The position numbers and the translations under genes were made by a program. This document shows positions 34,244 to 58,257 of a stretch of 64,000 nucleotides of DNA, piece by piece (position 1 is the stretch's first letter; each line of letters begins with the position of its first letter). The DNA is from Bacteroidaceae bacterium (GTDB taxonomy: Bacteria > Pseudomonadota > Alphaproteobacteria > RF32 > CAG-239): the NCBI GenBank assembly GCA_963659495.1, contig CAVKTH010000002.1:10712-74711 (forward strand), in the 5' to 3' direction. The notes under the pieces are model-generated. The model worked only from the letters and a program-made list of their open reading frames with translations. It did not search any database and was not told the origin of the DNA.

Positions 34244-35155
34244 CTATCTTTGTTCTAAAATATCTAAAAGCGAGCTTAATTCTGCCGGTGTGTTATAGTG
34301 CAATGTTATACTACCTTTACCTTTTTTTCCAGCATTTATTTTGACTTTTAGCTTTAATTTTTCTTCTAGGTCCGCCATGATTTTTTCTAAATCTCTGTCT
34401 ACAGGCTTAGGCTGTTTCGGCATAATATTTTTAACATTTATACCTTTGGCGCCGGCAGCCAAAGCTTCGGCTTCACGCACGCTCAAACCCTCTTTAACAA
34501 TTTTATCTGCAAGTTCAGAGGCATTTTCACAGCCAATTAAAGCGCGGGCATGTCCGGCGGTCAGCTTATTTTCTTTTACCAGCTGTTTAATTTCTTCCGA
34601 CAGACTCAGCAAACGCAAGGTGTTGGCAATATAGCTGCGGGACTTGCCGATAACTTTGCCGATAACTTCTTGAGTGTAGGCATATTCGTTCATCAGGCGG
34701 TTTAAGCCCTCGGCTTCTTCAATAGCCGACAGATTTTCACGCTGCAGATTTTCAATTAAAGCGATTTCCAGAGTTTCGCTGTCGTTTAAGTCTTTAACAA
34801 TTACCGGAACTTCATCCAAACCGGCAAGCTGAGCTGCGCGCCAGCGGCGCTCCCCGGCAATAATTTCATATTTATCGTTCTTTTTGCGCACCAAAAGCGG
34901 CTGCAGCACGCCTTTTTCTTTTATGGACTGAGCTAAAGACTCCAGAGCTTCACGGTCAAACTCCGTACGCGGCTGAAACGAGCAAGGAACAATATCCGAT
35001 ATTTTAACTTCATTTTTTTCAGTTTTAAATACAGCGTTCTCAACCAAACTACTGACATCTGCCGTTTCATCATCCAGATTCAGATTTATATCTTCATCGC
35101 CAAGCAGCGCTTCCAGACCGCGCCCCAAACCGAATTTTTTATTATTTGCGTTCAT
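34244..35155 (-). CDS. parB: Chromosome partitioning protein ParB
   Basis: ParB box (GERRWRAAQLAG) and HTH domain. Confidence 0.9.
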   Translation of the reverse strand: MNANNKKFGLGRGLEALLGDEDINLNLDDETADVSSLVENAVFKTEKNEVKISDIVPCSFQPRTEFDREALESLAQSIKEKGVLQPLLVRKKNDKYEIIAGERRWRAAQLAGLDEVPVIVKDLNDSETLEIALIENLQRENLSAIEEAEGLNRLMNEYAYTQEVIGKVIGKSRSYIANTLRLLSLSEEIKQLVKENKLTAGHARALIGCENASELADKIVKEGLSVREAEALAAGAKGINVKNIMPKQPKPVDRDLEKIMADLEEKLKLKVKINAGKKGKGSITLHYNTPAELSSLLDILEQR

Positions 35156-35923
35156 TTATAACTCCTTTTCTCTTTTCAAAACTTCTTTGGCCAACTGAAT
35201 ATAGGCCTGCGCTCCGGCGCTTTTAAAATCATAAATCAAAATCGGCTTGCCGTGCGACGGAGCCTCGGCAATGCGCACGCTGCGCGGAATAACCGTCCGA
35301 TAAACTTTGTCGCCGAAATATTTGCGTACATCAGCTTCAATCATCTGGCTGAGGTTATTTTGCCTGCTGTACATTGTGAGAATAATGCCCTGCAAAGTCA
35401 AAGCCGGATTAAAATTGCGTTTAATCGCGTTAATATTTTTCATTAAATCAGCCAAGCCCTCCAGAGCCAAAAACTCGCATTGCAGCGGCACCATAACCGA
35501 ATTGGAGCTAACCAGCGCGTTAATAGTGATTAAGTTTAAGGACGGCGGGCAGTCAATCAGCACATAATCATATACGGCTTCTAAGCTGCTTAAGGCTTTT
35601 TTCAGCACAAACTCGCGTTTTTCTACCTCCACAAGTTCAATTTCCGCCGCAGCCAAATCCGGCGATGACGGAATCATATCAAACCGTGGCAAATCCGTAT
35701 GCAAAACCGCTTCTTTAACATCGCACTTGCCGATTAAAACATCATATGAAGAATAGTTTTCTTTTTGCTTGGCGATTCCCATAGAGGTTGTAGCATTGCC
35801 CTGCGGGTCAAAGTCTATAACCAGCACGCGCCGGCCGATAGCTGACAAAGCCGTGGCAATATTGATTGTAGTGGTGGTTTTTCCGACTCCGCCTTTACGG
35901 TTTGCAACAGAAATTATTTTCAT
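35156..35923 (-). CDS. parA: Chromosome partitioning ATPase ParA
   Basis: Deviant Walker A KGGVGKTT. The Met at MKIISVANRKGG is the likely start. Confidence 0.9.
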   Translation of the reverse strand: MKIISVANRKGGVGKTTTTINIATALSAIGRRVLVIDFDPQGNATTSMGIAKQKENYSSYDVLIGKCDVKEAVLHTDLPRFDMIPSSPDLAAAEIELVEVEKREFVLKKALSSLEAVYDYVLIDCPPSLNLITINALVSSNSVMVPLQCEFLALEGLADLMKNINAIKRNFNPALTLQGIILTMYSRQNNLSQMIEADVRKYFGDKVYRTVIPRSVRIAEAPSHGKPILIYDFKSAGAQAYIQLAKEVLKREKEL

Positions 35924-36567
35924 TTTTTCTTTACCTCCGTCAAACAAAATACATAGCCCTCTTTGCCTTTTTCTACTTCAAACGGACGGGCGTAAAAATT
36001 TTCAAATATATCTACAGACATCTGCCAATTTTTTTCAGCTTCTTCCAATTCAGCGAATCCGGTATGACCTTTAGGCAAAACATATTCCGTATTTTTAGAA
36101 TACAGTCCGGCTGTACATTTCAGGATTTTATCAACCGAAGCCACAGCGCGGGCGGTTATATAATCTACATTTTTAAATACAACGTTTTCAGCACGATTAT
36201 TTATAACTTCAGTATTCTGCAAATTTAATCGTTTGCAGACATCTTTTAAATACAGCGTTTTTTTAGTTATACTTTCTATAAGCACAATTTTCAGAGCCGG
36301 AAATTTTTCTTGGCAGGCAATAGCCAACACGATTCCCGGAAAGCCGGAACCGCTTCCGATATCTACAAGCAATTTTGCGTCATCGCGGATATAATCTATC
36401 AGCTGCAAAGAATCCAGCAAATGACGCGTTTCCAGTTCTTTTTCGGCATTTTTACTGACTAAGTTAATTTTTTGATTCCACTCTAAAAGAATTTGCAAAA
36501 AATCTTTCATTTTTTGCAATGTTTCACGTGAAACACCATAACTCAAAACTTCTTCATCAAAATTCAT
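35920..36567 (-). CDS. rsmG: 16S rRNA m7G527 methyltransferase
   Basis: GidB fold with SAM-binding motif DIGSGSGFPGIVLAI. Confidence 0.85.
   Translation of the reverse strand: MNFDEEVLSYGVSRETLQKMKDFLQILLEWNQKINLVSKNAEKELETRHLLDSLQLIDYIRDDAKLLVDIGSGSGFPGIVLAIACQEKFPALKIVLIESITKKTLYLKDVCKRLNLQNTEVINNRAENVVFKNVDYITARAVASVDKILKCTAGLYSKNTEYVLPKGHTGFAELEEAEKNWQMSVDIFENFYARPFEVEKGKEGYVFCLTEVKKK
36520..36535. other. Perfect 16-bp palindrome TGTTTCACGTGAAACA, copy 1 (inside rsmG, encoding VSRET)
   Basis: Exact sequence and its own reverse complement. Identical copies occur at 37766-37781 (mnmG) and 40598-40613 (mnmE). Confidence 0.7.
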
Positions 36568-36632
36568 TTTTACCTCTGGTTATAAAGTATGCGCCATTTA
36601 AATTTTATGCAACAAAATATAATTGTTATTCA

Positions 36633-37472
36633 CTAAAACTTAATTCTCTGCTGAATATTATGCTTTGCCAAAGCAGCTTCAGCCAAATCAAATCTATCGC
36701 CAAGCTCTGCAGCCGCATGTGCGTCATCGCTGATTACAAACGGAATACTGCGCTTAGCCGCCTCTGTTAAAATCTCTTCACTCGGATAAAAATCGTTAAT
36801 TTTACGCAAGCCTTTGGTGCTGATTTCCATTCCCATATTCTGACATTGCAAAGTATCTAAAATTTTTAGTTTTTGCGGCATAAATTTTTCGGCAGAGCAT
36901 ATATCTCCTAAACGGCGCGCATAGTCTAAATGCGCTAAAAATTTAAATACACCGCTTTTCACAGCTTTTTCTATAGTTTCAAAGTGCCGCTGCAGCAATT
37001 CATTTTGCAAAGCCTCATCCTTAAAGAAAACCGGCATATCATATAAATCAATTAAAGATTCGCAATTTTCATCAAACAGCATGTGATTGCCGGTAATGAT
37101 ATAGTCATAATCAAGCTGCTTCAAAAAATCCTGCAGCTCGGCAAACCAACCGTTATATGTAAAGAAATCCACCTCAAAACCGACATATAATTTTAAGCCG
37201 CTTTGTGCAGAAACTTTACGGATATGTTCGCAATGCTTTTGAAAATCCGGTAAGATTTCTTTGAAATCTCTTTTAAATATATGGCTGTTGCCGCGCTGCT
37301 CCCAAAGCGGCCAAGATTTGCTTTGCCGTATATTTTTATGCACGCACAAATGGTCGCTTATACCCAGTTCACAAAAACCAAGTTTTTTAGCCTGCGCGAC
37401 CATTTCTTCAAGCGTATTATTTCCATCAGAAAAATTTGTGTGCGAATGATATGAAAAATTCTGAACTATCAT
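36633..37472 (-). CDS. PHP-domain metal-dependent phosphoesterase (HisJ-like histidinol-phosphatase family)
   Basis: The N-terminal YHSHTNFSDG...GISDH matches the PHP His motifs. Confidence 0.55.
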   Translation of the reverse strand: MIVQNFSYHSHTNFSDGNNTLEEMVAQAKKLGFCELGISDHLCVHKNIRQSKSWPLWEQRGNSHIFKRDFKEILPDFQKHCEHIRKVSAQSGLKLYVGFEVDFFTYNGWFAELQDFLKQLDYDYIITGNHMLFDENCESLIDLYDMPVFFKDEALQNELLQRHFETIEKAVKSGVFKFLAHLDYARRLGDICSAEKFMPQKLKILDTLQCQNMGMEISTKGLRKINDFYPSEEILTEAAKRSIPFVISDDAHAAAELGDRFDLAEAALAKHNIQQRIKF

Positions 37473-39355
37473 TTTTTAATATATCCCAAAATTGCCGTAA
37501 CCGCTGCCGGAGTAACGCCTTTTATGCGGGCAGCCTCGCCGATTGTTTTTGGTTTTACTGCCGTGAAGCGCTGAATCATTTCTGTAGATAGTCCGCCGAT
37601 TTTAGAATAATCTATATCGTCGCGGATTTGCAAATTTTCATCACGTTTAAATACAGCGATATCTTCATATTCACGCTTTAAATAACCGGCATATTTAGCG
37701 TCAATTTCAACTTGCTCATAAACAGAATTTTCTATATCCTGGCTTTCCGGGGCAATTTTGGAAATTGTTTCACGTGAAACATCTTGGTAGCCCAATAAAT
37801 CTTTTAAGGTCTTTTTACCATTATGTTTTACGGTTATACCTAATGCTTCTATTTCAGGATAAGAAACGATTTTGTTTAAGCAAAAGTCATCAAACTTTTT
37901 AATTTTTTCTTCTTTTGTTTTAAATACACTGTATCTATTTTCGGAAACACAGCCAATGTTATAGCCAAGCTCCGTCAAACGGGCATCAGCATTATCAGCA
38001 CGCAGTACCAAGCGATATTCTGAACGCGAAGTAAACATTCGGTATGGCTCGTCCACGCCTTTGGTAATTAAATCATCAACCATAACACCTATATAGCCTT
38101 GACTGCGGTCAATTTTAAACTCTTTGCCGCGGTTAAGTGCAAACAAAGCCGCATTTACGCCGGCCAGCAAGCCTTGCGCTGCCGCCTCTTCATAACCGGT
38201 AGTGCCGTTAATCTGTCCGGCTAAATACAATCCCTTAGACTTTTTAACTGCTAAGCAATGGTCAAGTTCCTGCGGATTTACAAAATCATATTCAATCGCA
38301 TACGCATAACGAAGAATCTCCACATTTTCCAAACCTTTCATGGTATGGATAAAGGCATCCTGCACGTCTGCCGGCAGCGAGGTAGAAATTCCGTTTGGAT
38401 AAACAACGTTTGTATCATATCCCTCCGGTTCCAAAAAAATCTGGTGCGAGGTTCGGTCGGCAAAGCGGACTAATTTATCTTCAATACTTGGACAATAACG
38501 CGGCCCCTTACCGGTAATCAACCCCGAAAATAAAGCGCACTTAGAAAAATTATCACGGATAATTTTATGCGTCGTTTCATTGGTGTATGTTACGCCGCAG
38601 TCAATCTGACGATTGTTAAGCGCCTTAGTTAAAAACGAAAACGGCACCGGATTTTTATCGCCGGATTGTTTTTCCAAAATACCCCAGTTAATCGTATCGC
38701 CGTTTAAACGGGACGGCGTACCGGTTTTCAAGCGCCCCAGCTGCAGACCTAAAGATTTTAAATACGGTGTTACACCCGTGCAAGAGATATCTCCGACACG
38801 CCCGCCGATAGAAGTCTGATGACCTGTAAACATCACGCCATTTAAAAATGTGCCGGTTGTCAAAACCACGGCTTTAGCAAAAATTTCCGTATCATCAGCA
38901 AGCTTTACACCGCAGACATTATTATCTTTTATCAGCAAACCCTCAACTGCCCCCTCTTTAATATCCAAATTCGGAGTTTCCTGCAGCGCCTGCAGCATAT
39001 ACTTTTTATAAAGCTCACGGTCTGCCTGCGCACGCGGTCCGCGTACAGCAGGTCCTTTAGATAAATTAAGCATTCTGAATTGAATACCAGCTTTATCTAT
39101 TACCCGCCCCATTAAACCGTCTAAAGCGTCTACTTCGCGCACTAAATGTCCCTTGCCCAATCCGCCGATAGCAGGATTACACGACATTTCGCCGATTGTA
39201 GAAATTTTATGGGTAACTAACAAAGTTTTGGCACCGGTACGAGCCGCAGCAGCGCAAGCCTCACATCCGGCATGACCGCCGCCGACAACAATCACATCAT
39301 ACATATTATTCATTTCTGCCTCTAAAATTTTTCTTACACTAAAGCACAAAACCAA
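37469..39355 (-). CDS. mnmG: tRNA uridine-5-carboxymethylaminomethyl synthesis enzyme MnmG (GidA)
   Basis: FAD-binding motif VIVVGGGHAGCEA and conserved C-terminal GVTPAAV. Confidence 0.95.
   Translation of the reverse strand: MVLCFSVRKILEAEMNNMYDVIVVGGGHAGCEACAAAARTGAKTLLVTHKISTIGEMSCNPAIGGLGKGHLVREVDALDGLMGRVIDKAGIQFRMLNLSKGPAVRGPRAQADRELYKKYMLQALQETPNLDIKEGAVEGLLIKDNNVCGVKLADDTEIFAKAVVLTTGTFLNGVMFTGHQTSIGGRVGDISCTGVTPYLKSLGLQLGRLKTGTPSRLNGDTINWGILEKQSGDKNPVPFSFLTKALNNRQIDCGVTYTNETTHKIIRDNFSKCALFSGLITGKGPRYCPSIEDKLVRFADRTSHQIFLEPEGYDTNVVYPNGISTSLPADVQDAFIHTMKGLENVEILRYAYAIEYDFVNPQELDHCLAVKKSKGLYLAGQINGTTGYEEAAAQGLLAGVNAALFALNRGKEFKIDRSQGYIGVMVDDLITKGVDEPYRMFTSRSEYRLVLRADNADARLTELGYNIGCVSENRYSVFKTKEEKIKKFDDFCLNKIVSYPEIEALGITVKHNGKKTLKDLLGYQDVSRETISKIAPESQDIENSVYEQVEIDAKYAGYLKREYEDIAVFKRDENLQIRDDIDYSKIGGLSTEMIQRFTAVKPKTIGEAARIKGVTPAAVTAILGYIKK
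37766..37781. other. Perfect 16-bp palindrome TGTTTCACGTGAAACA, copy 2 (inside mnmG, encoding VSRET)
   Basis: Exact match to the copies at 36520 and 40598. Confidence 0.7.
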
Positions 39356-39436
39356 AATAAATGCAAATTAAAATACGCTGCACCGATTTAAATACAGCGT
39401 ATTTTTTATCAGTAAAATTTAAATACAATGTTTTTA

Positions 39437-40789
39437 TTATTTACCGATACAAAAGCTGCTGAATATTTTATCCAAAATCTCATCAACTTCCACCTGACCG
39501 GTAATTTTTCCGATAGCCCGGCAAGCCAAACGAATATCCTCTGCCGACAACTCAATTTCTTTTTGCAGATTAAAACGGCTTAAATTTTCCAAGCATTCAG
39601 CCAGTGATTCTTTATAGCGCTGTCTGGTAATCAGCTGAGCCGAGCTTTTTTCATACATATTCTGAAATGTTTCATAAATTTTATCAGTAACAGCATTTAC
39701 ATTTTGATTTTCTTTGGCAGATATCAAAATACAGCCTTGCTCATGCAATTTTTCTTGCTGCCCAGCCGATAATTTATCCATTTTATTGGCCACTAAAGCA
39801 TAAGGAGCCGCAGCAGCTTTTATATATTCGTCAAAAATTTCCGGCGAATCTTTTTCAGCATCAAACATAAACAAGCAAAAATCAGCTTCCGCAATTTTAT
39901 CTTTTGCCAGCTTAATGCCGATTTGTTCAATTTCATCAGCAGATTCGCGCAGCCCGGCCGTATCGGTAAATATTACCGGAAAGCCTTTTAAATCTACATA
40001 AGCTTCAATCACATCGCGGGTTGTTCCGGCAATATCAGAAACAATCGCTACATTTCTTTTTACAACAGCATTTATTAAGCTGGATTTACCGGCGTTGGTG
40101 GGTCCGGCAATCACAACCTTAAAGCCGTCGCGCAGACGCTCTTCCACATTATTCTGCTGTAAATGATTTTTAATTTCTTCAGAAATTTTAAATACACCGT
40201 TTTCAATTTTCTGCACCGTATCCTGCGGAATATTCTCATCCGGAAAATCAATATAAGCTTCTATATAGGATAAAACATTAACCAAACGCGAGCGCCAGTC
40301 ATTATATAAATCAAACAAAGTTCCGCCCATTTGCTGCAAAGCGACTTTTTGCTGCAATGAGGTTTCAGCTTCAATCAAATCGGCTAAACCATCGGCTTCA
40401 GTCAAATCCATTTTGCCGTTATAAAATGAGCGGCGGGAAAATTCCCCAGGTTCGGCCAAACGAAAATCCGGCAGCAACGACAAGGCTTCTAAAAAGCTGC
40501 GGATAACGGCTTTTGAGCCATGGCAGTTTATCTCTACCGTATCTTCTCCCGTAAAAGAAGCCGGAGATTTAAAAGCCACCAGCAAAGAATTATCTAATGT
40601 TTCACGTGAAACAGGATTGTAAAATTTGGTTAAATACATTTTGCGGCTGACAATTTTTTCTTCATCTAAATCCGTCATTTGAGAAATTATCTCAAAAGCT
40701 TTGCTTCCGGAAATGCGGATTACCCCTACTCCGGATTTTCCAAACACCGTAGATAAAGCATAAATTGTTTTATTATCCATTTTTACCAT
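39437..40789 (-). CDS. mnmE: tRNA modification GTPase MnmE (TrmE)
   Basis: G-domain motifs GPTNAGKSSL, DTAG and NKMD, and the C-terminal CIGK. Confidence 0.9.
   Translation of the reverse strand: MVKMDNKTIYALSTVFGKSGVGVIRISGSKAFEIISQMTDLDEEKIVSRKMYLTKFYNPVSRETLDNSLLVAFKSPASFTGEDTVEINCHGSKAVIRSFLEALSLLPDFRLAEPGEFSRRSFYNGKMDLTEADGLADLIEAETSLQQKVALQQMGGTLFDLYNDWRSRLVNVLSYIEAYIDFPDENIPQDTVQKIENGVFKISEEIKNHLQQNNVEERLRDGFKVVIAGPTNAGKSSLINAVVKRNVAIVSDIAGTTRDVIEAYVDLKGFPVIFTDTAGLRESADEIEQIGIKLAKDKIAEADFCLFMFDAEKDSPEIFDEYIKAAAAPYALVANKMDKLSAGQQEKLHEQGCILISAKENQNVNAVTDKIYETFQNMYEKSSAQLITRQRYKESLAECLENLSRFNLQKEIELSAEDIRLACRAIGKITGQVEVDEILDKIFSSFCIGK
40598..40613. other. Perfect 16-bp palindrome TGTTTCACGTGAAACA, copy 3 (inside mnmE, encoding VSRET)
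   Basis: Exact match. The flank aaTGTTTCACGTGAAACA is shared with the rsmG copy. Confidence 0.7.
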
Positions 40790-50422: not shown

Positions 50423-51175
50423 TCAAAATGCTAAAATAAGTCCGCAGACTTTACCGGCTTCTTTTGTGCATGAATTGCAAGCGCTGTTGATTTCGCTTAA
50501 AGACAAATCTCTTATACATTTTGAATTTGCCGAACAATAAGCCTCGCCCCAATAATAATAGCTGCTGTCCGTTGTAAACCACGCTACATACAGCACAGAG
50601 GCTAAAGGCTGCACGATATCCGACATTATCCGCTTGCATAACTTTGGAGAAAAGGCGGTTGAGGCTGATTTATTATCAACAACCTGAAAACTGCCTAAAT
50701 ACATATCTATAATTACACGCTCTCCAGAAGAAAAAACACGAATATAATTGCCGTTTGGGTCATGAAAATCGGAGCTGCTGTCTCTTACCCAAGTTTTCGG
50801 CACTAAATTTGCCGCCTCCACAATATCTGTCAGCCCATACTGCGCACCAGCTGTCCCATTTTTTGAAACGTTTTTTAAATCTGTAAGATGTTCTAACAAT
50901 CCATAAATTAAATAGCTGTATTCGCTAACAGCTTTGATTAGTTTGAATTGTTCCATAGCCTTGGAATATCCGGCAATTCCGCCGACACTCAGCACACCGA
51001 TAATCGCCAGCACGCCGAGCATTTCTATCATTGACCGACCAAAGGAATTTGCGTCTCTGCCGCCAGTCATTCTAGGTCGTGACGCACAGTCTGTACCTAG
51101 GATCTTGTCGCCCAAGGGTGACGCGACAGCGCAGAGCGGCGGGTATTCTAAAGCATTTTCAAAATTTTTATACAT
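50423..51175 (-). CDS. Prepilin-like protein, copy 2 (paralogue of 3313-4452)
   Basis: The MYKNFEN start lies at the same offset from the conserved leader as in copy 1. It contains the repeat-derived KILGTDCASRPRMTGGRDA segment and the G-RSMIEMLGVLAIIGVLSVGGIAGYSKAM prepilin motif. The C-terminus is Cys-containing and variable. The six-frame ORF start at 51346 is rejected because that extension lies inside the conserved non-coding leader. Confidence 0.6.
   Translation of the reverse strand: MYKNFENALEYPPLCAVASPLGDKILGTDCASRPRMTGGRDANSFGRSMIEMLGVLAIIGVLSVGGIAGYSKAMEQFKLIKAVSEYSYLIYGLLEHLTDLKNVSKNGTAGAQYGLTDIVEAANLVPKTWVRDSSSDFHDPNGNYIRVFSSGERVIIDMYLGSFQVVDNKSASTAFSPKLCKRIMSDIVQPLASVLYVAWFTTDSSYYYWGEAYCSANSKCIRDLSLSEINSACNSCTKEAGKVCGLILAF
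51051..51112. repeat. Palindromic repeat element (ctagg...cctag) related to the terminal inverted repeats at 3371/3624, in-frame in pilin-like copy 2
   Basis: gcgtctctgccgccagtcattctagg-[21 nt]-cctaggatcttgtcgcc aligns to 3371-3414 with a longer loop. Confidence 0.55.
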
Positions 51176-51393
51176 ATTTCTAACTCCGTTTAATTTGTTA
51201 CATAAAACAAAACCCGCTGTAAATGCGGGCGGATGTTCAGAAACCGTAAATCGTAATCGTAAAACGGCTCGGCCTATTCGGCGTGTAGCCTTATTTAACC
51301 GACATCCGTCCAAAAACAGAAGTCGGCATAAACAGTTTAAAGTCACTTATGCAAGTGACTGATTACGATTAAAAGGGTTTCTGACGCCCTAGG
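51176..51393 (-). ncRNA. Conserved structured 5' leader (candidate riboswitch or attenuator RNA) of pilin-like gene copy 2
   Basis: Homologue of 3097-3312, with hairpin agtcact-tgcata-agtgact (51342-51361) and terminator cccgc-atttacag-gcggg + UUUUGUUUU (51205-51235). Confidence 0.6.
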
Positions 51394-51448
51394 CATATCT
51401 CTATACCTATAAATTTTATAGCTTATGCCAAAAGGAAAGTAAAGAACT

Positions 51449-53143
51449 TTATTCGGTCAAAAAATTGCCTCTGCTATTGCCTTGCGATAAATAAATTTTA
51501 CCGTCTAAATAAACTACAGACAATTCTTTTTCCCGAATATTAGGGGTTTGAGTATCTGAATGTTCTTTTTCATAGTTTTTCAAAAATTCTGCAAACTCCT
51601 CAACTTGTTCCGAGGTTAAGTTTTCATTTTTCGGCTCAGGAGATGTTCCATAAGGCACAGAACCGCGTAAATAATCATAGACATCATTGCCTTGCGAATC
51701 AGTCAATTTCAAATCGGCGCCATTTTCAACTAAATACTTAGCAATATCTAAATGACCTTCTTGCACCGCATACATCAAAGCTGTTCTTTCTCCATACTGT
51801 ATGCAAATATCATCATTGCAATAATAACCGTTGTCTTTATTGCCGGCATTAGTCTGAGCATCTATATCTGCACCGGCATCTAACAATATTTTTACGCTGT
51901 CTAAAAAGCCGTATTGAGCTGCATACATCAACGCGGTTTTGCCTATAGAATTTACAGCATTTACATCTGTATTTATTCCTTTACACTTATTTTCGGAACA
52001 CTCCTGTAGCAATAAAGCCAAAACATCAGGACGATGAATGCTTATCATTAAAATTTCATCGGCCTCAACCGGTATCTGCGGCTCTTTAAGAGTTTCTCCG
52101 CCCTGAATTTGCTTTACAATCAAATCTTTAATTTCATCTATCGGCGCACCAGAGAGAATTTTATAGCGCAGAGTGCTTTTATCTACCGGTTCTCCGCGGG
52201 TTGCCGGCGGCATCATTACTAAATGAGCATATTGCTCTGCCATTTTTTCCGAAACCTTAAACGTTTTAACATAATGCTGAGCCAGCTGCTTTACCGCTTC
52301 TTTAAAACCTATGCCGTAATTTAGAGTTTCCGTAACTTTTTTATAATTCGGATATGAGGCCATCGCCCATTCTTCCAGCGGCATAACTTTCAGATATTTT
52401 TCATTGCCTTTGATATTCCAATCCGGATTATAGCGGTAAATGTTATCATAGTATTTTTCCTTTGCCTGATAAACAAAACGGCTGGAGCCGCCACTCTCAA
52501 AATAAAAATTGCTATACAAGTTATAGTAAAATTTGTTTACTTCTTTAGGAAAATCATATTCTTCATATTGCGAACAGTTAGAAATATCTATTGCTTCAGC
52601 TCCGTGACCGCCGCCGGCATAATCCAAAACAGCCGTCATTTTAAGCTTTCGCGCTGTAGGGCAGGGAACAATAATCTGCCATGGCGTATAATTTATATAA
52701 TTACTTTCATTATCCCAAATATTAAAAAATTTAGAAAAATGCAAAGCCCCGATTTCTATCAAGCATTTTAACTGCTCGTAGCATTTCAGCGGATTTTCTC
52801 CCACTAATTCTAAATAGTCCTCTTGGTACATTCTATAAAAAGGCTCATTCGGCACAATTTTTTCGTATTGAGCAACCAATTTTTCATGCAATCTTTGGGC
52901 AATTTGCGAAAACTCTTTAGTCTTTATCTGTTGAGGATGATAGATACTCTGCAATATTAAATATTCAATCGCAGCGGAATCATTTGTATCAATCAATTTT
53001 TTGAGCTGTTTAATAGCTTGATTCGGATTATTTTTAATGGCCTCGGTTATCTTTTCGTATTCATTATAATCTTTATTTGTTTCTACAGCAAACGCTGAAA
53101 AACTAAATAAGCTCATTAACAGCAAAATTAAAAACTTTTTCAT
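51449..53143 (-). CDS. Secreted ankyrin-repeat protein
   Basis: Signal peptide MKKFLILLLMSLFSFSAFA. At least three C-terminal ankyrin repeats (GKTALMYAAQYGFLDSVKILLDAGADID...; ERTALMYAVQEGHLDIAKYLVENGADLK). Confidence 0.8.
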   Translation of the reverse strand: MKKFLILLLMSLFSFSAFAVETNKDYNEYEKITEAIKNNPNQAIKQLKKLIDTNDSAAIEYLILQSIYHPQQIKTKEFSQIAQRLHEKLVAQYEKIVPNEPFYRMYQEDYLELVGENPLKCYEQLKCLIEIGALHFSKFFNIWDNESNYINYTPWQIIVPCPTARKLKMTAVLDYAGGGHGAEAIDISNCSQYEEYDFPKEVNKFYYNLYSNFYFESGGSSRFVYQAKEKYYDNIYRYNPDWNIKGNEKYLKVMPLEEWAMASYPNYKKVTETLNYGIGFKEAVKQLAQHYVKTFKVSEKMAEQYAHLVMMPPATRGEPVDKSTLRYKILSGAPIDEIKDLIVKQIQGGETLKEPQIPVEADEILMISIHRPDVLALLLQECSENKCKGINTDVNAVNSIGKTALMYAAQYGFLDSVKILLDAGADIDAQTNAGNKDNGYYCNDDICIQYGERTALMYAVQEGHLDIAKYLVENGADLKLTDSQGNDVYDYLRGSVPYGTSPEPKNENLTSEQVEEFAEFLKNYEKEHSDTQTPNIREKELSVVYLDGKIYLSQGNSRGNFLTE

Positions 53144-54296
53144 TTTTACACCTAAATAACAGATTAACTTCTCTTATATTAACTAGAAAAAGTTAAAAAA
53201 TGCACAAAAAAACATAAATTGAACTTATTATTTTGTTTATGGCGGAATTATTGCAATATCATTAAAAAAGCGATAACCGCAGGGTTCAGTCAAGAACGCT
53301 GCGGTTATTTTTCGTTTATAAATTTAAAATTGTTAAAAACTTTGCTGATTAATTATGGGAGCCTAAGTCTCTGCGTCAGTTAATAAAATCCAGTAACCAG
53401 AAAGTAATCTGTATTGATTTTATTATAGTACAAGTATCAAAGCTCATGATCGTCATGTACTCATTCTGCATTGATATTCTTTGTAATTGTACAAGCTATC
53501 AAACTGTTCCTGACCGCTTTGCACATTCGTTTGCGCAGCATAAATCAAAATTAACTTTTTGAATTCTGCTCAAAATCCGGATTATTTAATGTAATTATAA
53601 GCTCTAAAGCGCATTATTACTAAATACTAATCAACGACCGGATTCGCATAACCGACAGACTTATCATCAGCAACGTCCCTCAACACATAGGCGCACGGAT
53701 AAGGTTCGTATTAGGACGGTTCAACATACCTAAAACTCTACCGAAACCAAAAGACTTCTTTACAATTCTCCTAGCTGAACTGTCTTTCATCTTCTGAGCT
53801 TCTACCTTATCAACAACTGTGTCACCTTTTGATTCTAATCCTTTTATTAAAAGGATTGCGAGAATCGCATAAAATAGAAATACCAAAAGATTAACTATAA
53901 TTATTGAATTTAACGCTAAAAGATATAATACCGGCTGCAGATATTGTCAATAAAAAAAATAACCGCAAAGTTCCCTAAAAAAGAACAATGCGGTTATAGT
54001 TTTGGCAAAGATTATTTCCAGAATAATCTCAAGTTGGCGAACGAATATGAGGGAGATTAATACTCTCTAAGTCATTAAAACTAACAGCGGCTCCCCTTAT
54101 TAAGCGGCTGAAAATTTCAATAACCCGATTACTTATATTCGTGGCAACTATAAACTTTTCAAAATAAATCAGGGACAAGCAAATTACTATAAGTCCGAGA
54201 ATAAATGTAAAAAATAGAATTATACCAGCCATAATTATTAAAATTTAGCCTTGTATAACACTCAGATTTGCCGTTGTCAAGCCTTTTTGTCAAAAT

Positions 54297-55103
54297 TTAT
54301 TTATCTGCGGAGCAGCAGTCTTCCACATCGCTGATATCGGCCATTGCGTTAAAATTTCGGATATATTCTTCTTTGGTTAAGCAATTTTCCTTAGCTTTTT
54401 TCTCGTCTTTATAAACTTCGCGCCAATCGGCTTCCGGCATATCCGACATTGTGTCTTTATTGCTTTCGGCCACATTTTTAGAAAAAACAACCATATATTC
54501 GGCGTATTCATCTGCCGTTACGCAGCCGTCTTTGTCTTTATCCATTTGAAAATAGTTTTCTTCGGCGATGCCCTGAGATATGCTGCCGATTATATTATCC
54601 GACATTTCTTCGGCTGATGTGTCTTGAAATTTTTCTAAGGCAGCTTTAGCCTTATCCATTTTTTCTTGGAAATCTTTCATTATTTCTTCGGGAGATTTAT
54701 TTGCCAGTTCCTGCGCCATTTTCTGCGCTTGTTCGGCACGCTCTTTGGCCTCATATTCGGTTTCTTTTTGCAAAACCTCAAAATATTCTTCTTTGCTGAG
54801 GCGGGAATCGCCGTTTCTATCGGCTTGCTTAAAATATTCCTGCATGCGGGATTTTTTAGCCGCTTTCTGCTCGTCGTTCAGATTAAAATCAATATCAATG
54901 CTTTTAAGCAAATAGCCGTATTCATTTTCAGAAATAAAACCGTCGCTGTTTACGTCATTAAGCTCAAAACCGCTGCTCAGCATACCTTGAATCTCCGGAT
55001 CCGACATTTTTTCCTGCACGGTTTTCTGCCAGTCAAAATCCTGCGTTTCCTCGGCTTGAGCTGAAAAAACAATCAAAAAGCTGAAAAGAACCAATTTATA
55101 CAT
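54297..55103 (-). CDS. Secreted EF-hand calcium-binding protein
   Basis: Signal peptide MYKLVLFSFLIVFSAQA. Three canonical EF-hand loops (DVNSDGFISENE, DRNGDSRLSKEE, DKDKDGCVTADE). Confidence 0.7.
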   Translation of the reverse strand: MYKLVLFSFLIVFSAQAEETQDFDWQKTVQEKMSDPEIQGMLSSGFELNDVNSDGFISENEYGYLLKSIDIDFNLNDEQKAAKKSRMQEYFKQADRNGDSRLSKEEYFEVLQKETEYEAKERAEQAQKMAQELANKSPEEIMKDFQEKMDKAKAALEKFQDTSAEEMSDNIIGSISQGIAEENYFQMDKDKDGCVTADEYAEYMVVFSKNVAESNKDTMSDMPEADWREVYKDEKKAKENCLTKEEYIRNFNAMADISDVEDCCSADK

Positions 55104-55272
55104 AATAAAATCTCCTAAAATTATTCGGCTTGTTTATAACATGGTTTCAGCATTTATACAACTAAAATTAAAAATTTCAAAAAATCAACAGGTTTTTGTT
55201 GACTTATTGACAAAAAACATATATAATCACGTTACATTTAAAATTATTTTGAACTCGTTAATTTTTATTTTT

Positions 55273-55683
55273 ATGAAGAATTTTTATTTTTTAATCGTGT
55301 TCATTTTGGGAGCTGTTTTTGGTATCGGCTGTGTAGTTTTGGTACAAAAATACATCCTGCAGAATGAAGCTGAGATGGTGGCTAAAGAAGTTGTTTTAAA
55401 AGAGCAGCCTCAAACCTCATCCGCAAATACCGTAAAAAGCATTCAGCTGGTTAAGGATGATGAAGTCAGCAAAACTCCGGTAATTGATAAACCGGATGAG
55501 CCGAAAAAAGAAGAAAAAGGACATACTTTTTTTGCTATGTTTGCATCGCTTACGGTTTTGTGCCTTATAATTGCGGTTGCCTACGGCGTTAATGCCAACC
55601 ATTCTGACCAAACGAAATTAGCGAGCATCTTTTTTGGGATTGCCGCGCTTGCTTGTGCAGTAGTAGCATTTTTCTGTTACTGA
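55273..55683 (+). CDS. Hypothetical membrane protein
   Basis: N-terminal TM helix MKNFYFLIVFILGAVFGIG and C-terminal TM helices, with an Lys/Glu/Pro-rich middle. A Met inside the longer six-frame ORF was taken as the start. Confidence 0.4.
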   Translation: MKNFYFLIVFILGAVFGIGCVVLVQKYILQNEAEMVAKEVVLKEQPQTSSANTVKSIQLVKDDEVSKTPVIDKPDEPKKEEKGHTFFAMFASLTVLCLIIAVAYGVNANHSDQTKLASIFFGIAALACAVVAFFCY

Positions 55684-55691
55684 CATAATAA

Positions 55692-55727
55692 AAAAGACCG
55701 GTTTTATAAAAATCGGTCTTTTTTATT
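55692..55727. terminator. Bidirectional intrinsic terminator between convergent genes
   Basis: Stem aagaccg / cggtctt, flanked by A-runs and T-runs. Confidence 0.5.
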
Positions 55728-55737
55728 ATTCAACTCA

Positions 55738-56139
55738 TTAAAACTTTTGCTTTATACCGCTGTAAATCATGCAGCCCAGCCCCAAAACCAGCACAAAAGC
55801 CAAAACCGCCAGCAAGAAATAAACCGAAACATATAAAATTCCGGCCGCTAGCAAAATTGAAAAAGCAAACAAGCCGGTTTCCTGCAGCCATTTAAGACAT
55901 GAATTTCTTTCCGGAAGCAAAGCAACCGCCTCATTATCGGCGTGTCCGTTTACTCCGTGTCCGCATTTCAGGCAATAAAACGAATCCACCGGAATATTAG
56001 CTCCGCACTTATCGCAAACCAAATACAAGCCCTCTCCGGTATCTTTGGTGCGGTGCAGGCAATGCGGGCAAAACTGCCATTTCCAAAACTTAAGCGGAGT
56101 TACATCTTTTTGGCAATTAAAGCAAAATACTTTTTTCAT
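55738..56139 (-). CDS. Double zinc-ribbon membrane protein
   Basis: Two CxxC...CxxC ribbons (CFNCQ...CPHC; CDKC...CLKC), then two C-terminal TM helices. Confidence 0.5.
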   Translation of the reverse strand: MKKVFCFNCQKDVTPLKFWKWQFCPHCLHRTKDTGEGLYLVCDKCGANIPVDSFYCLKCGHGVNGHADNEAVALLPERNSCLKWLQETGLFAFSILLAAGILYVSVYFLLAVLAFVLVLGLGCMIYSGIKQKF

Positions 56140-56286
56140 TTTATATCCTTGTTTATGGTTCGTCCTAATATTTTATTTAGTTTTTTTGCCGATAAAAGGC
56201 AAGAGATTTTATAAACAATTTAAATTATTAACGAATCTGTAAATTTTGGCAGGCTATACTGATGTATAAATATGAAAGGAGCCGCC

Positions 56287-57837
56287 ATGAAAAAAGTTGT
56301 AATAATAGGAGCCGGTCCTGCCGGTTTGACCGCCGGTTTTGAACTTTTGAAAAAATCTAAAGACTATCAGGTAACTATTTTAGAAGAAAGCGATGCTATA
56401 GGCGGAATTTCACGCACCGTCCGCTATAACGGCAACAGAATGGATATCGGCGGCCACAGATTTTTTTCTAAAGACCAAGAGGTTACCGACTGGTGGAACA
56501 ATCTTATGCCTTTGCAGGGCGCTCCCTCGCTGGACGACATTAAAACCGGACGTGTTTTTGAGCTGAATCCACAGGGACCGAATCCGGAAAAAGAAGATAT
56601 TGTGATGCTGAAACGGCGCCGCATCTCCCGCATTTATTACAAACGCAAATTTTTTGACTATCCGGTAAAGATGAACCTTAACACCATTTTTAATATGGGG
56701 CTGTTTACCACCGCGCAAGCCGGATTCAGCTATATATTCGCGATATTGCGCAAACTGCCGGAAACTTCATTGGAAAACTTTTATATCAACCGCTTCGGGC
56801 GCAAGCTGTATTCCATGTTTTTTGAGGGCTACACCGAAAAGCTTTGGGGGCGTCATCCCCGCGATATTTCTGCCGACTGGGGCGCACAGAGGGTCAAAGG
56901 GCTGTCAATCGTGGCAATTTTGAAAGATATTTTCAGCAAAATTCTGTTTATAAAGCCCAAACAGGTTGAAACTTCGCTGATAGAAGAGTTCAGCTATCCA
57001 AAATTTGGACCGGGGCAGCTTTGGGAAACTGCAGCCGCTAAAATTGAAGAGATGGGCGGCAAAATTATTAAAAATGCCAGAGTTGCAAAATTCAAAACCA
57101 AGAAAAACGAATTTAAAGAAGTTGTTTATATTAAAGACGGCAAAGAATACACCATGCCGGCGGATATTGTTGTTTCATCTATGCCGCTTAAAGACCTTGC
57201 CGCCGGAATAGACAGCATTCCCAGCAAAATAGAGCGCATAGCCGGCGGTCTGCCTTACCGCGATTTTGTGACGGTCGGCTTGCTTTTGAAAAAGCTTAAC
57301 CTAAAAAATCAAACCAAAGTCAAAACTCTTAACAATATTGTGCCGGACTGCTGGATTTATGTGCAGGATACCGGTGTAAAACTGGGGCGCATCCAGATAT
57401 TTAACAACTGGTCGCCGTATTTAGTGGCAAAACCGGAGGAAACGGTTTGGATTGGACTGGAATATTTTTGCCGCGAAAATGATGAATATTGGAACATGAG
57501 TCCGGCAGAATGGCGGGCTTTGGGCGTAAGCGAACTTTTGAAAATGGGGGTTATTTCAGATGAAAAAGACGTGATGGACTCTCATTTAGAGCGCGTTAAA
57601 AAGGCCTATCCGGCTTATTTTGACACCTATAAGGATATTGACAAGCTGACAGAATACCTGAATTCGTTTGAGAATCTTTACTGCGTGGGGCGCAACGGCC
57701 AGCACCGCTATAACAATATGGATCACTCTATGGCGACTTCTTTTGCGGCGGTACGGCATATTTTGGGCGAAATCAGCGATAAAAAGGCTATTTGGCAGGT
57801 CAATACCGAAAAAAGCTATCATGAAACAAAAAAATAA
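56287..57837 (+). CDS. FAD/NAD(P)-dependent oxidoreductase (amine oxidase / phytoene desaturase / protoporphyrinogen oxidase superfamily)
   Basis: N-terminal dinucleotide-binding motif [20 protein letters not shown]...LEESDAIGG, and GGHRFF. About 515 aa. Confidence 0.7.
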
Positions 57838-57940
57838 ACTAGCCTAACGGTTATCTTTGATTTGCCGAAATCAGTTTTATCTCTTTTGGCGTAACAGCGA
57901 AATGTTATGTTTTTTATAAACAAATTCAAAGGAGATTAAA

Positions 57941-58084
57941 ATGAAAAAAGAATCTAAATCTTATGACAGCAAAAAACCGTCTCAAAAAGCTCAGCCTACT
58001 GTTTCTAAAGGCGGCTGTGGCTGCGGCTGCAGCAATTCCGCTTCAGAAATGGAAGAAATTGATGAAATTTCAATTAGCAAATAG
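57941..58084 (+). CDS. 47-aa Lys-rich peptide with a GGCGCGCSNS core and acidic tail (candidate RiPP precursor or metal-binding peptide)
   Basis: Strong RBS: GGAG 7 nt before the ATG. Translates MKKESKSYDSKKPSQKAQPTVSKGGCGCGCSNSASEMEEIDEISISK. Followed by a hairpin plus T-run at 58143-58172. Too short to appear in the six-frame ORF track. Confidence 0.45.
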   Translation: MKKESKSYDSKKPSQKAQPTVSKGGCGCGCSNSASEMEEIDEISISK

Positions 58085-58257
58085 GTTGTTTATATGAAAA
58101 ATTTTAACGACTGAAAAAACTGATAACAACTAAAATACAAGACTTTGTTTCACATGAAACAGGGTCTTTTTTTATTTTATGCCGCCTTAAACTTAATCAA
58201 AATTTAAATTCTTTTATTTATGCTAAAGTCAGATTTTTATCTTTAATGAGGGTTGAC

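Follow-up and report, generated by a model that had tools for sequence, protein, structure and literature searches.

Why should three unrelated housekeeping proteins, encoded in one gene cluster, share one pentapeptide that is spelled each time by the same stretch of DNA? In the 64-kb window analysed here (the whole stretch taken from contig CAVKTH010000002.1 of an uncultured gut alphaproteobacterium), the perfect 16-bp palindrome TGTTTCACGTGAAACA is present in three exact copies, at positions 36520-36535, 37766-37781 and 40598-40613. All three are read in frame on the minus (coding) strand as V-S-R-E-T, within rsmG (gidB), mnmG (gidA) and mnmE (trmE), respectively. An earlier note on this sequence had reported these copies and their host genes, and both were confirmed by sequence search and Pfam. 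Among its options was a site bound by a dimeric regulator or by a nucleoid protein, which was right in kind, but the note did not recognise the motif. We predict, with a probability of about 95%, that all three copies represent parS, the centromere-like site at which a chromosomal ParABS segregation system loads; this would explain the puzzling VSRET repeat. parS is an already known textbook element, and the locus does not represent a new system.

Site 1 consists of the last base of codon 11 and codons 12-16 of rsmG (35920-36567, minus strand; 215 aa; Pfam GidB, 5e-49), in the context SYG-VSRET-LQK. Site 2 encodes residues 526-530 of MnmG (37469-39355, minus strand; 628 aa; Pfam GIDA, 6e-164), in the context YQD-VSRET-ISK, and site 3 encodes residues 60-64 of MnmE (39437-40789, minus strand; 450 aa; Pfam TrmE_N, MnmE_helical and MMR_HSR1, with MnmE matches in the PDB), in the context YNP-VSRET-LDN. 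The 'aa' that precedes two of the copies on the plus strand corresponds to the leucine codon (TTG or TTA) following VSRET. The palindrome is the same on both strands and its three frames give CFT*, VSRET and FHVK. Frame 0 holds the stop codon TGA, which leaves VSRET and FHVK as the only peptides that a parS inside a gene can encode. A single copy with one mismatch, TGTTTCACATGAAACA, was found at 58146-58161, and no further copies with up to two mismatches were present in the window. Dinucleotide-preserving shuffles gave an expectation of 0.01 hits, and none of 100 shuffles reached 4.

Full-text search showed that the exact 16-mer occurs together with 'parS' in 13 published papers. It is 'the optimal sequence' of Bacillus subtilis parS (PMC4333373), and band-shift work on the ParB of Hyphomonas neptunium, itself an alphaproteobacterium, used it as the wild-type parS oligonucleotide (PMC6650430). 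A review that tabulates chromosomal parS sites gives the same 16-mer for several species (PMC7022226), and in mycobacteria it lies upstream of gidB and inside parA (PMC2346475). All three window copies match the published 16-bp parS consensus TGTTNCACGTGAAACA (consensus or optimal sequence in PMC4333373, PMC2346475 and PMC7022226). The literature search returned no papers with 'VSRET' or with the CACATG variant of the site.

The gene order mnmE-mnmG-rsmG-parA-parB is a classic cluster. In the window, parA and parB lie directly downstream of rsmG, and sites 1, 2 and 3 are 1.4, 2.6 and 5.4 kb from parB, site 1 being upstream of it. parA (35156-35947, minus strand; Pfam AAA_31, CbiA and ParA) encodes a Soj-type partition ATPase with the deviant Walker A box KGGVGKT. 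The list of open reading frames (ORFs) starts this gene at an upstream TTG. Its true start is probably the ATG at 35923, which overlaps the stop codon of rsmG (ATGA), and the overlap suggests that translation of the two genes may be coupled.

The parB product (34244-35155, minus strand; Pfam ParB_N, HTH_ParB and ParB_C) scored 194.6 with the NCBIfam model parB_part, the cut-off of which is 58.45. Over its N-terminal and DNA-binding domains it matched the solved structures of Myxococcus xanthus ParB (7BNK, 5e-53) and of Caulobacter ParB in the ParB-parS complex (6T1F, 2e-52). Its box for binding cytidine triphosphate (CTP) reads GERRWRA. The cognate helix-turn-helix protein that the earlier note had advised looking for is encoded next to the sites, in the form of this ParB with its HTH_ParB domain. 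Conserved DNA contacts of ParB are made by Q162, G170, K171, S172, N178 and R204, and R173 and G201 are the parS-specificity residues, which are reported to be conserved without exception among ParB orthologues (Jalal et al. 2020, PMC7383237). All of these residues are present in the window ParB under the same numbering. At positions 179 and 184 the protein has T and S, which are permitted.

In the published mechanism, parS is the nucleation site for ParB, which binds CTP, spreads or slides onto the flanking DNA and builds a partition complex; ParB also recruits SMC and is transported by ParA (PMC7053999, PMC4333373). At this locus, a ParB dimer encoded 1.4 kb away would recognise each palindrome through its helix-turn-helix domains, bind CTP at the GERRxRA box and close into a clamp. 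The clamp would then slide onto the flanking DNA, so that a partition complex would form over the mnmE-parB region, to be moved by the ParA ATPase. The same complex would likely load SMC.

A protein other than ParB could in principle be the one that reads the palindrome, which might then be a DNA-uptake sequence, a restriction-modification target with a CACGTG core, an E-box-type regulator site or a site for Noc. Such a factor would fit a motif that is palindromic, over-represented and conserved as DNA, but we consider it very unlikely. Uptake sequences number hundreds to thousands per genome and are dispersed at a density of about one per kb. The 64-kb window has three to four copies, which all fall in 22 kb (36.5-58.2 kb) beside parAB, and the uptake signal put forward in the earlier note was dropped on this density and clustering, as was a restriction-modification site. 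A restriction-modification target would be short or avoided rather than 16 bp in length, and conservation at these sites extends over the full 16 bp, not CACGTG alone. Noc is confined to Firmicutes and its site is TATTTCCCGGGAAATA (PMC7383237). The window protein scored 240.2 with the NCBIfam Noc model, below the cut-off of 315, and matched Noc structures less well (about 1e-45) than those of ParB. At positions 173, 179, 184 and 201 it has R, T, S and G and not the Noc-type Q, K, K and R. Site sequence, specificity residues and model score together rule out Noc and its NBS site.

To compare the sites between species we collected 80 related loci from contigs representing one genome per species, with MnmG as the query and without VSRET in the search patterns. 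The set comprised the clade of the window together with Amaricoccus, a Midichloriaceae metagenome-assembled genome (MAG), Chlorobi and Clostridia. The clade consists of uncultured alphaproteobacteria from human, ruminant and other guts, and the closest MAGs have 98% MnmG identity to the window. At the orthologous codons of rsmG, the clade has 51 exact sites, 4 with one mismatch and 4 absent (n = 59), at identities down to 39%. The rsmG site is exact in Amaricoccus as well, where RsmG is 33% identical. For mnmG the figures are 37 exact, 18 with one mismatch and 1 absent (n = 56), at identities down to 67%, and the site was absent (at least 7 mismatches) in 17 of 17 outgroup MnmG genes. The mnmE site was exact in 15 clade members, had one mismatch in 17 and was absent in 21 (n = 53); in the closest relative, L001, it is already CACATG. 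Of the three sites, that in mnmE is the most recent and the least constrained. Throughout, the orthologous 16-mers were all-or-none, with no more than 1 mismatch or with 7 and more, and 2-6 mismatches were never seen.

The same loci show on which level selection acts. Background codon usage in six genes of these loci predicts that VSRET is spelled GTTTCACGTGAAACA in a share of 0.0069. The observed spelling was GTTTCACGTGAAACA in 52 of 52 RsmG, 57 of 59 MnmG and 17 of 21 MnmE sequences, that is, 81-100% where 0.7% was expected. The codon preceding VSRET in RsmG ends in T in 51 of 52 cases, against a background of 0.345, whereas the synonymous positions that flank the sites are scrambled. The 16-mer is under very strong purifying selection as DNA, whatever peptide it encodes. 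The earlier note had argued for such selection from this one sequence, and the codon test upholds it. Exact sites within long ORFs encoded VSRET 117 times versus FHVK 6 times over all loci, counts that are not phylogenetically independent.

These data bear directly on the proposal that VSRET is a functional peptide conserved in the three protein families, with its codons made alike by codon bias or gene conversion. VSRET is indeed widespread at the N-terminus of RsmG in alphaproteobacteria, including relatives that are only 33-40% identical. However, codon bias falls far short of the observed uniformity of spelling and leaves the fixed third base of the preceding codon unexplained. The peptide is missing from MnmG of all 17 outgroups and from MnmE of 21 clade members, and in RsmG it lies outside the Pfam GidB model, the match to which starts at residue 17, just past VSRET. 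Nor can gene conversion account for sites that stay the same between species in which the flanking sequence has become saturated. A conserved peptide with biased codons was rejected on the codon statistics and the outgroup absence, and we give it hardly any chance of being correct.

The sites arose by substitution in codons that already existed. Alignments of 63 RsmG, 81 MnmG and 62 MnmE sequences have no gap at VSRET. In lineages without a site the same columns are filled by ordinary residues; examples are GISEAE (RsmG), EVKREV and GVHLTM (both MnmG), and LDKTEN and SVSKEL (both MnmE). The unit of 16 bp is not a multiple of three, which makes an in-frame insertion impossible. It is from these three observations together that we take the sites to have been written by substitution. 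The earlier note had favoured a small mobile palindrome that had entered the three genes in frame, and had pointed to an MnmE two residues longer at this site than that of Escherichia coli. Such an element would be comparable to the Rickettsia palindromic elements. That length difference holds loosely, as a 2-residue gap against chain 9HIP about 6 residues upstream of VSRET, and in the Thermotoga maritima MnmE a gap lies just before the motif; but Nostoc MnmE (3GEH), which has no parS, aligns without a gap (HPQTRQIVD versus NPVSRETLD), so that its loop is equally long. Although the motif is palindromic, intragenic and tolerated as a hydrophilic loop peptide, an insertion element is ruled out for practical purposes by the gap-free alignments, the length of the unit and the Nostoc loop, and the window contains no other recurrent palindrome family.

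The one-mismatch variants are confined to half-site positions 1, 5, 7 and 8. Of these, 1 and 5 are exactly where the published consensus tGTTNCACGTGAAACa is degenerate (PMC7022226). Transitions of the central CpG recur, giving CACATG or CATGTG and thus VSHET or VSCET. In the mnmE site they were seen in L001, L018, L020, L024-L027, L037, L057 and L060. They could reflect a mutational hotspot at CpG, a site centre that tolerates change, or a ParB preference that has shifted in some lineages, and might thus be a sign of tolerated or lineage-shifted specificity of ParB.

Site loss is accompanied by intergenic copies in three loci. L011, L017 and L021 have lost the intragenic rsmG site, and L017 and L021 the mnmG site as well. 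All three carry exact intergenic copies, which lie upstream of mnmG, between rsmG and the PHP gene described below, or in both places (L011:6848; L017:6874 and 9800; L021:787 and 3724). These loci represent parS turnover with the neighbourhood kept. Exact copies also flank mnmG in the Chlorobi and Clostridia loci. In L074-L079, which are Chlorobiaceae MAGs, an exact parS lies 27 bp upstream and another 30 bp downstream of mnmG (about 6974 and 8878); parA and parB were not detected within 7 kb of this pair. In 80 gut-metagenome loci picked through an unrelated gene (523 kb), only five copies were found, in 4 loci.

Several points weigh against the identification of the copies as parS or against the proximity to an origin that it would imply. 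The site count is that of the 64-kb window. Loci L040, L049 and L052 have centre transitions in both the mnmG and the rsmG site and no perfect site within 16 kb, so either the central CpG is tolerant to change or the main sites of these genomes lie elsewhere. ParB binding, spreading and segregation at these sites in the source organism we infer from analogy with the systems cited above. Neither a dnaA gene nor a DnaA-box cluster was found in the 64-kb window. The cumulative GC skew falls to about 56 kb and then flattens, which only suggests an origin at or beyond that position.

DnaA-box-like 9-mers (TTATCCACA, at most 1 mismatch) occur 27 times in the window, versus 12.6 in shuffles, and none of 100 shuffles reached 27. 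Because they are dispersed and not clustered, no origin was called.

The copy with one mismatch is located in a different setting. It forms the core of the stem of a terminator (58139-58178, plus strand), in which a hairpin of 13 pairs with a 4-nt loop (58139-58168) is followed by a T-run, as detected by terminator scan. The RNA fold has an energy of -16.7 kcal/mol (z = -4.6), and the hairpin lies downstream of a small co-oriented ORF on the plus strand (57941-58084). The earlier note had placed this copy at 58145-58160, one position too low, but the hairpin it described is real by scan, by fold and by comparison with L081, the one informative orthologue from the metagenome scan. In L081, where the neighbouring gene is 91% identical, the orthologous hairpin is TGTTTCATGTGAAACA, with the mirror variant CATGTG. 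The outer stem is AGAC...GTCT in the window and AGCC...GGCT in L081, a compensatory change, and both have the T-run. The G-U pairs of the stem work in plus-strand RNA only. Judged by these features, the fourth copy is to be regarded as a genuine intrinsic terminator. The window and L081 variants are each one CpG transition away from a perfect parS, which was therefore probably the ancestral state, and the stem probably derives from a perfect intergenic parS. The present stem might still bind ParB.

The small ORF next to this terminator encodes 47 aa, MKKESKSYDSKKPSQKAQPTVSKGGCGCGCSNSASEMEEIDEISISK, with a Cys-Gly repeat, and follows a gene for an FAD amine-oxidase-like protein. L081 has a conserved counterpart of the ORF, from which it differs mostly at synonymous positions. 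No family match was obtained for this ORF, and an exact-protein lookup of the gene beside the fourth copy gave no match. In L081 a 162-aa Hsp20-family gene (L081:4818-5306) is situated between the small ORF and the terminator. This gene is deleted in the window (about 58096-58135), where its first bases, ATGAAAAA, and its last bases, AACAACTAA, remain.

Taken more widely, the clade could long have kept its whole centromere array in three housekeeping genes in an all-or-none manner, with intergenic copies compensating for losses and one site co-opted as, or doubling as, a terminator. We regard this scenario as rather improbable; if true, it would offer a compact natural data set on the co-evolution of a DNA-binding site with protein-coding constraints. 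The site turnover, the all-or-none conservation and the parS-derived terminator are a modest illustration of the constraints imposed by overlapping codes. For annotation, the sites mark where the centromere of this uncultured gut alphaproteobacterium lies and probably also which region is close to its origin. The locus may also serve as a calibration case for genome scans, in that a true and strongly selected DNA signal turned out to be textbook biology.

Two further regions of the window were recorded. Between mnmG and rsmG lies a gene for a PHP-domain, HisJ-family histidinol-phosphatase-like protein (36633-37472, minus strand), the start of which overlaps the mnmG stop; it occupies the same position in nearly all clade loci and so extends, in this clade only, a gidA-gidB-parAB cluster that is universal elsewhere. 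Positions 50423-63907 hold a cluster of genes for eukaryote-like or host-interaction-type proteins: an ankyrin-repeat protein (51449-53143), an EF-hand protein (54297-55103), a Fic-domain protein (63299-63907) and a Ser/Gly/Asn-rich protein of 1677 aa (58246-63279). Positions 53143-54297 are a gene-poor stretch of 1.15 kb with low GC.

Compared with known systems, the window resembles the chromosomal ParABS systems (Spo0J-parS of B. subtilis, ParB-parS of Caulobacter and Hyphomonas) in the identical 16 bp and the few clustered copies. It also shares with them the adjacent parA-parB in the mnmE-mnmG-rsmG cluster and a ParB with a CTP box, a parS-type helix-turn-helix and a C-terminal dimerisation domain. 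Nothing essential differs, but the perfect copies in the window are all intragenic and in one frame, and the PHP/HisJ-family gene is inserted between mnmG and rsmG. The mycobacterial parS (PMC2346475) has the same palindrome, the same gene neighbourhood and likewise a copy in a coding region; however, mycobacteria have two copies, in parA and the gidB promoter, and the window has three, in rsmG, mnmG and mnmE. The Noc-NBS system of Firmicutes has a homologous protein with a ParB fold and a related 16-bp palindrome that differs at two half-site positions, whereas the window has parS, a ParB with R173 and G201 instead of Q and R, a Noc score under the cut-off and an alphaproteobacterial host. 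With the Rickettsia palindromic elements the window shares the tolerance of palindromic DNA inside ORFs. Those elements, however, are insertions of 100-150 bp that lengthen the protein and occur in many dispersed copies, in contrast to the 16-bp sites described here, which involve no insertion and are clustered by parAB.

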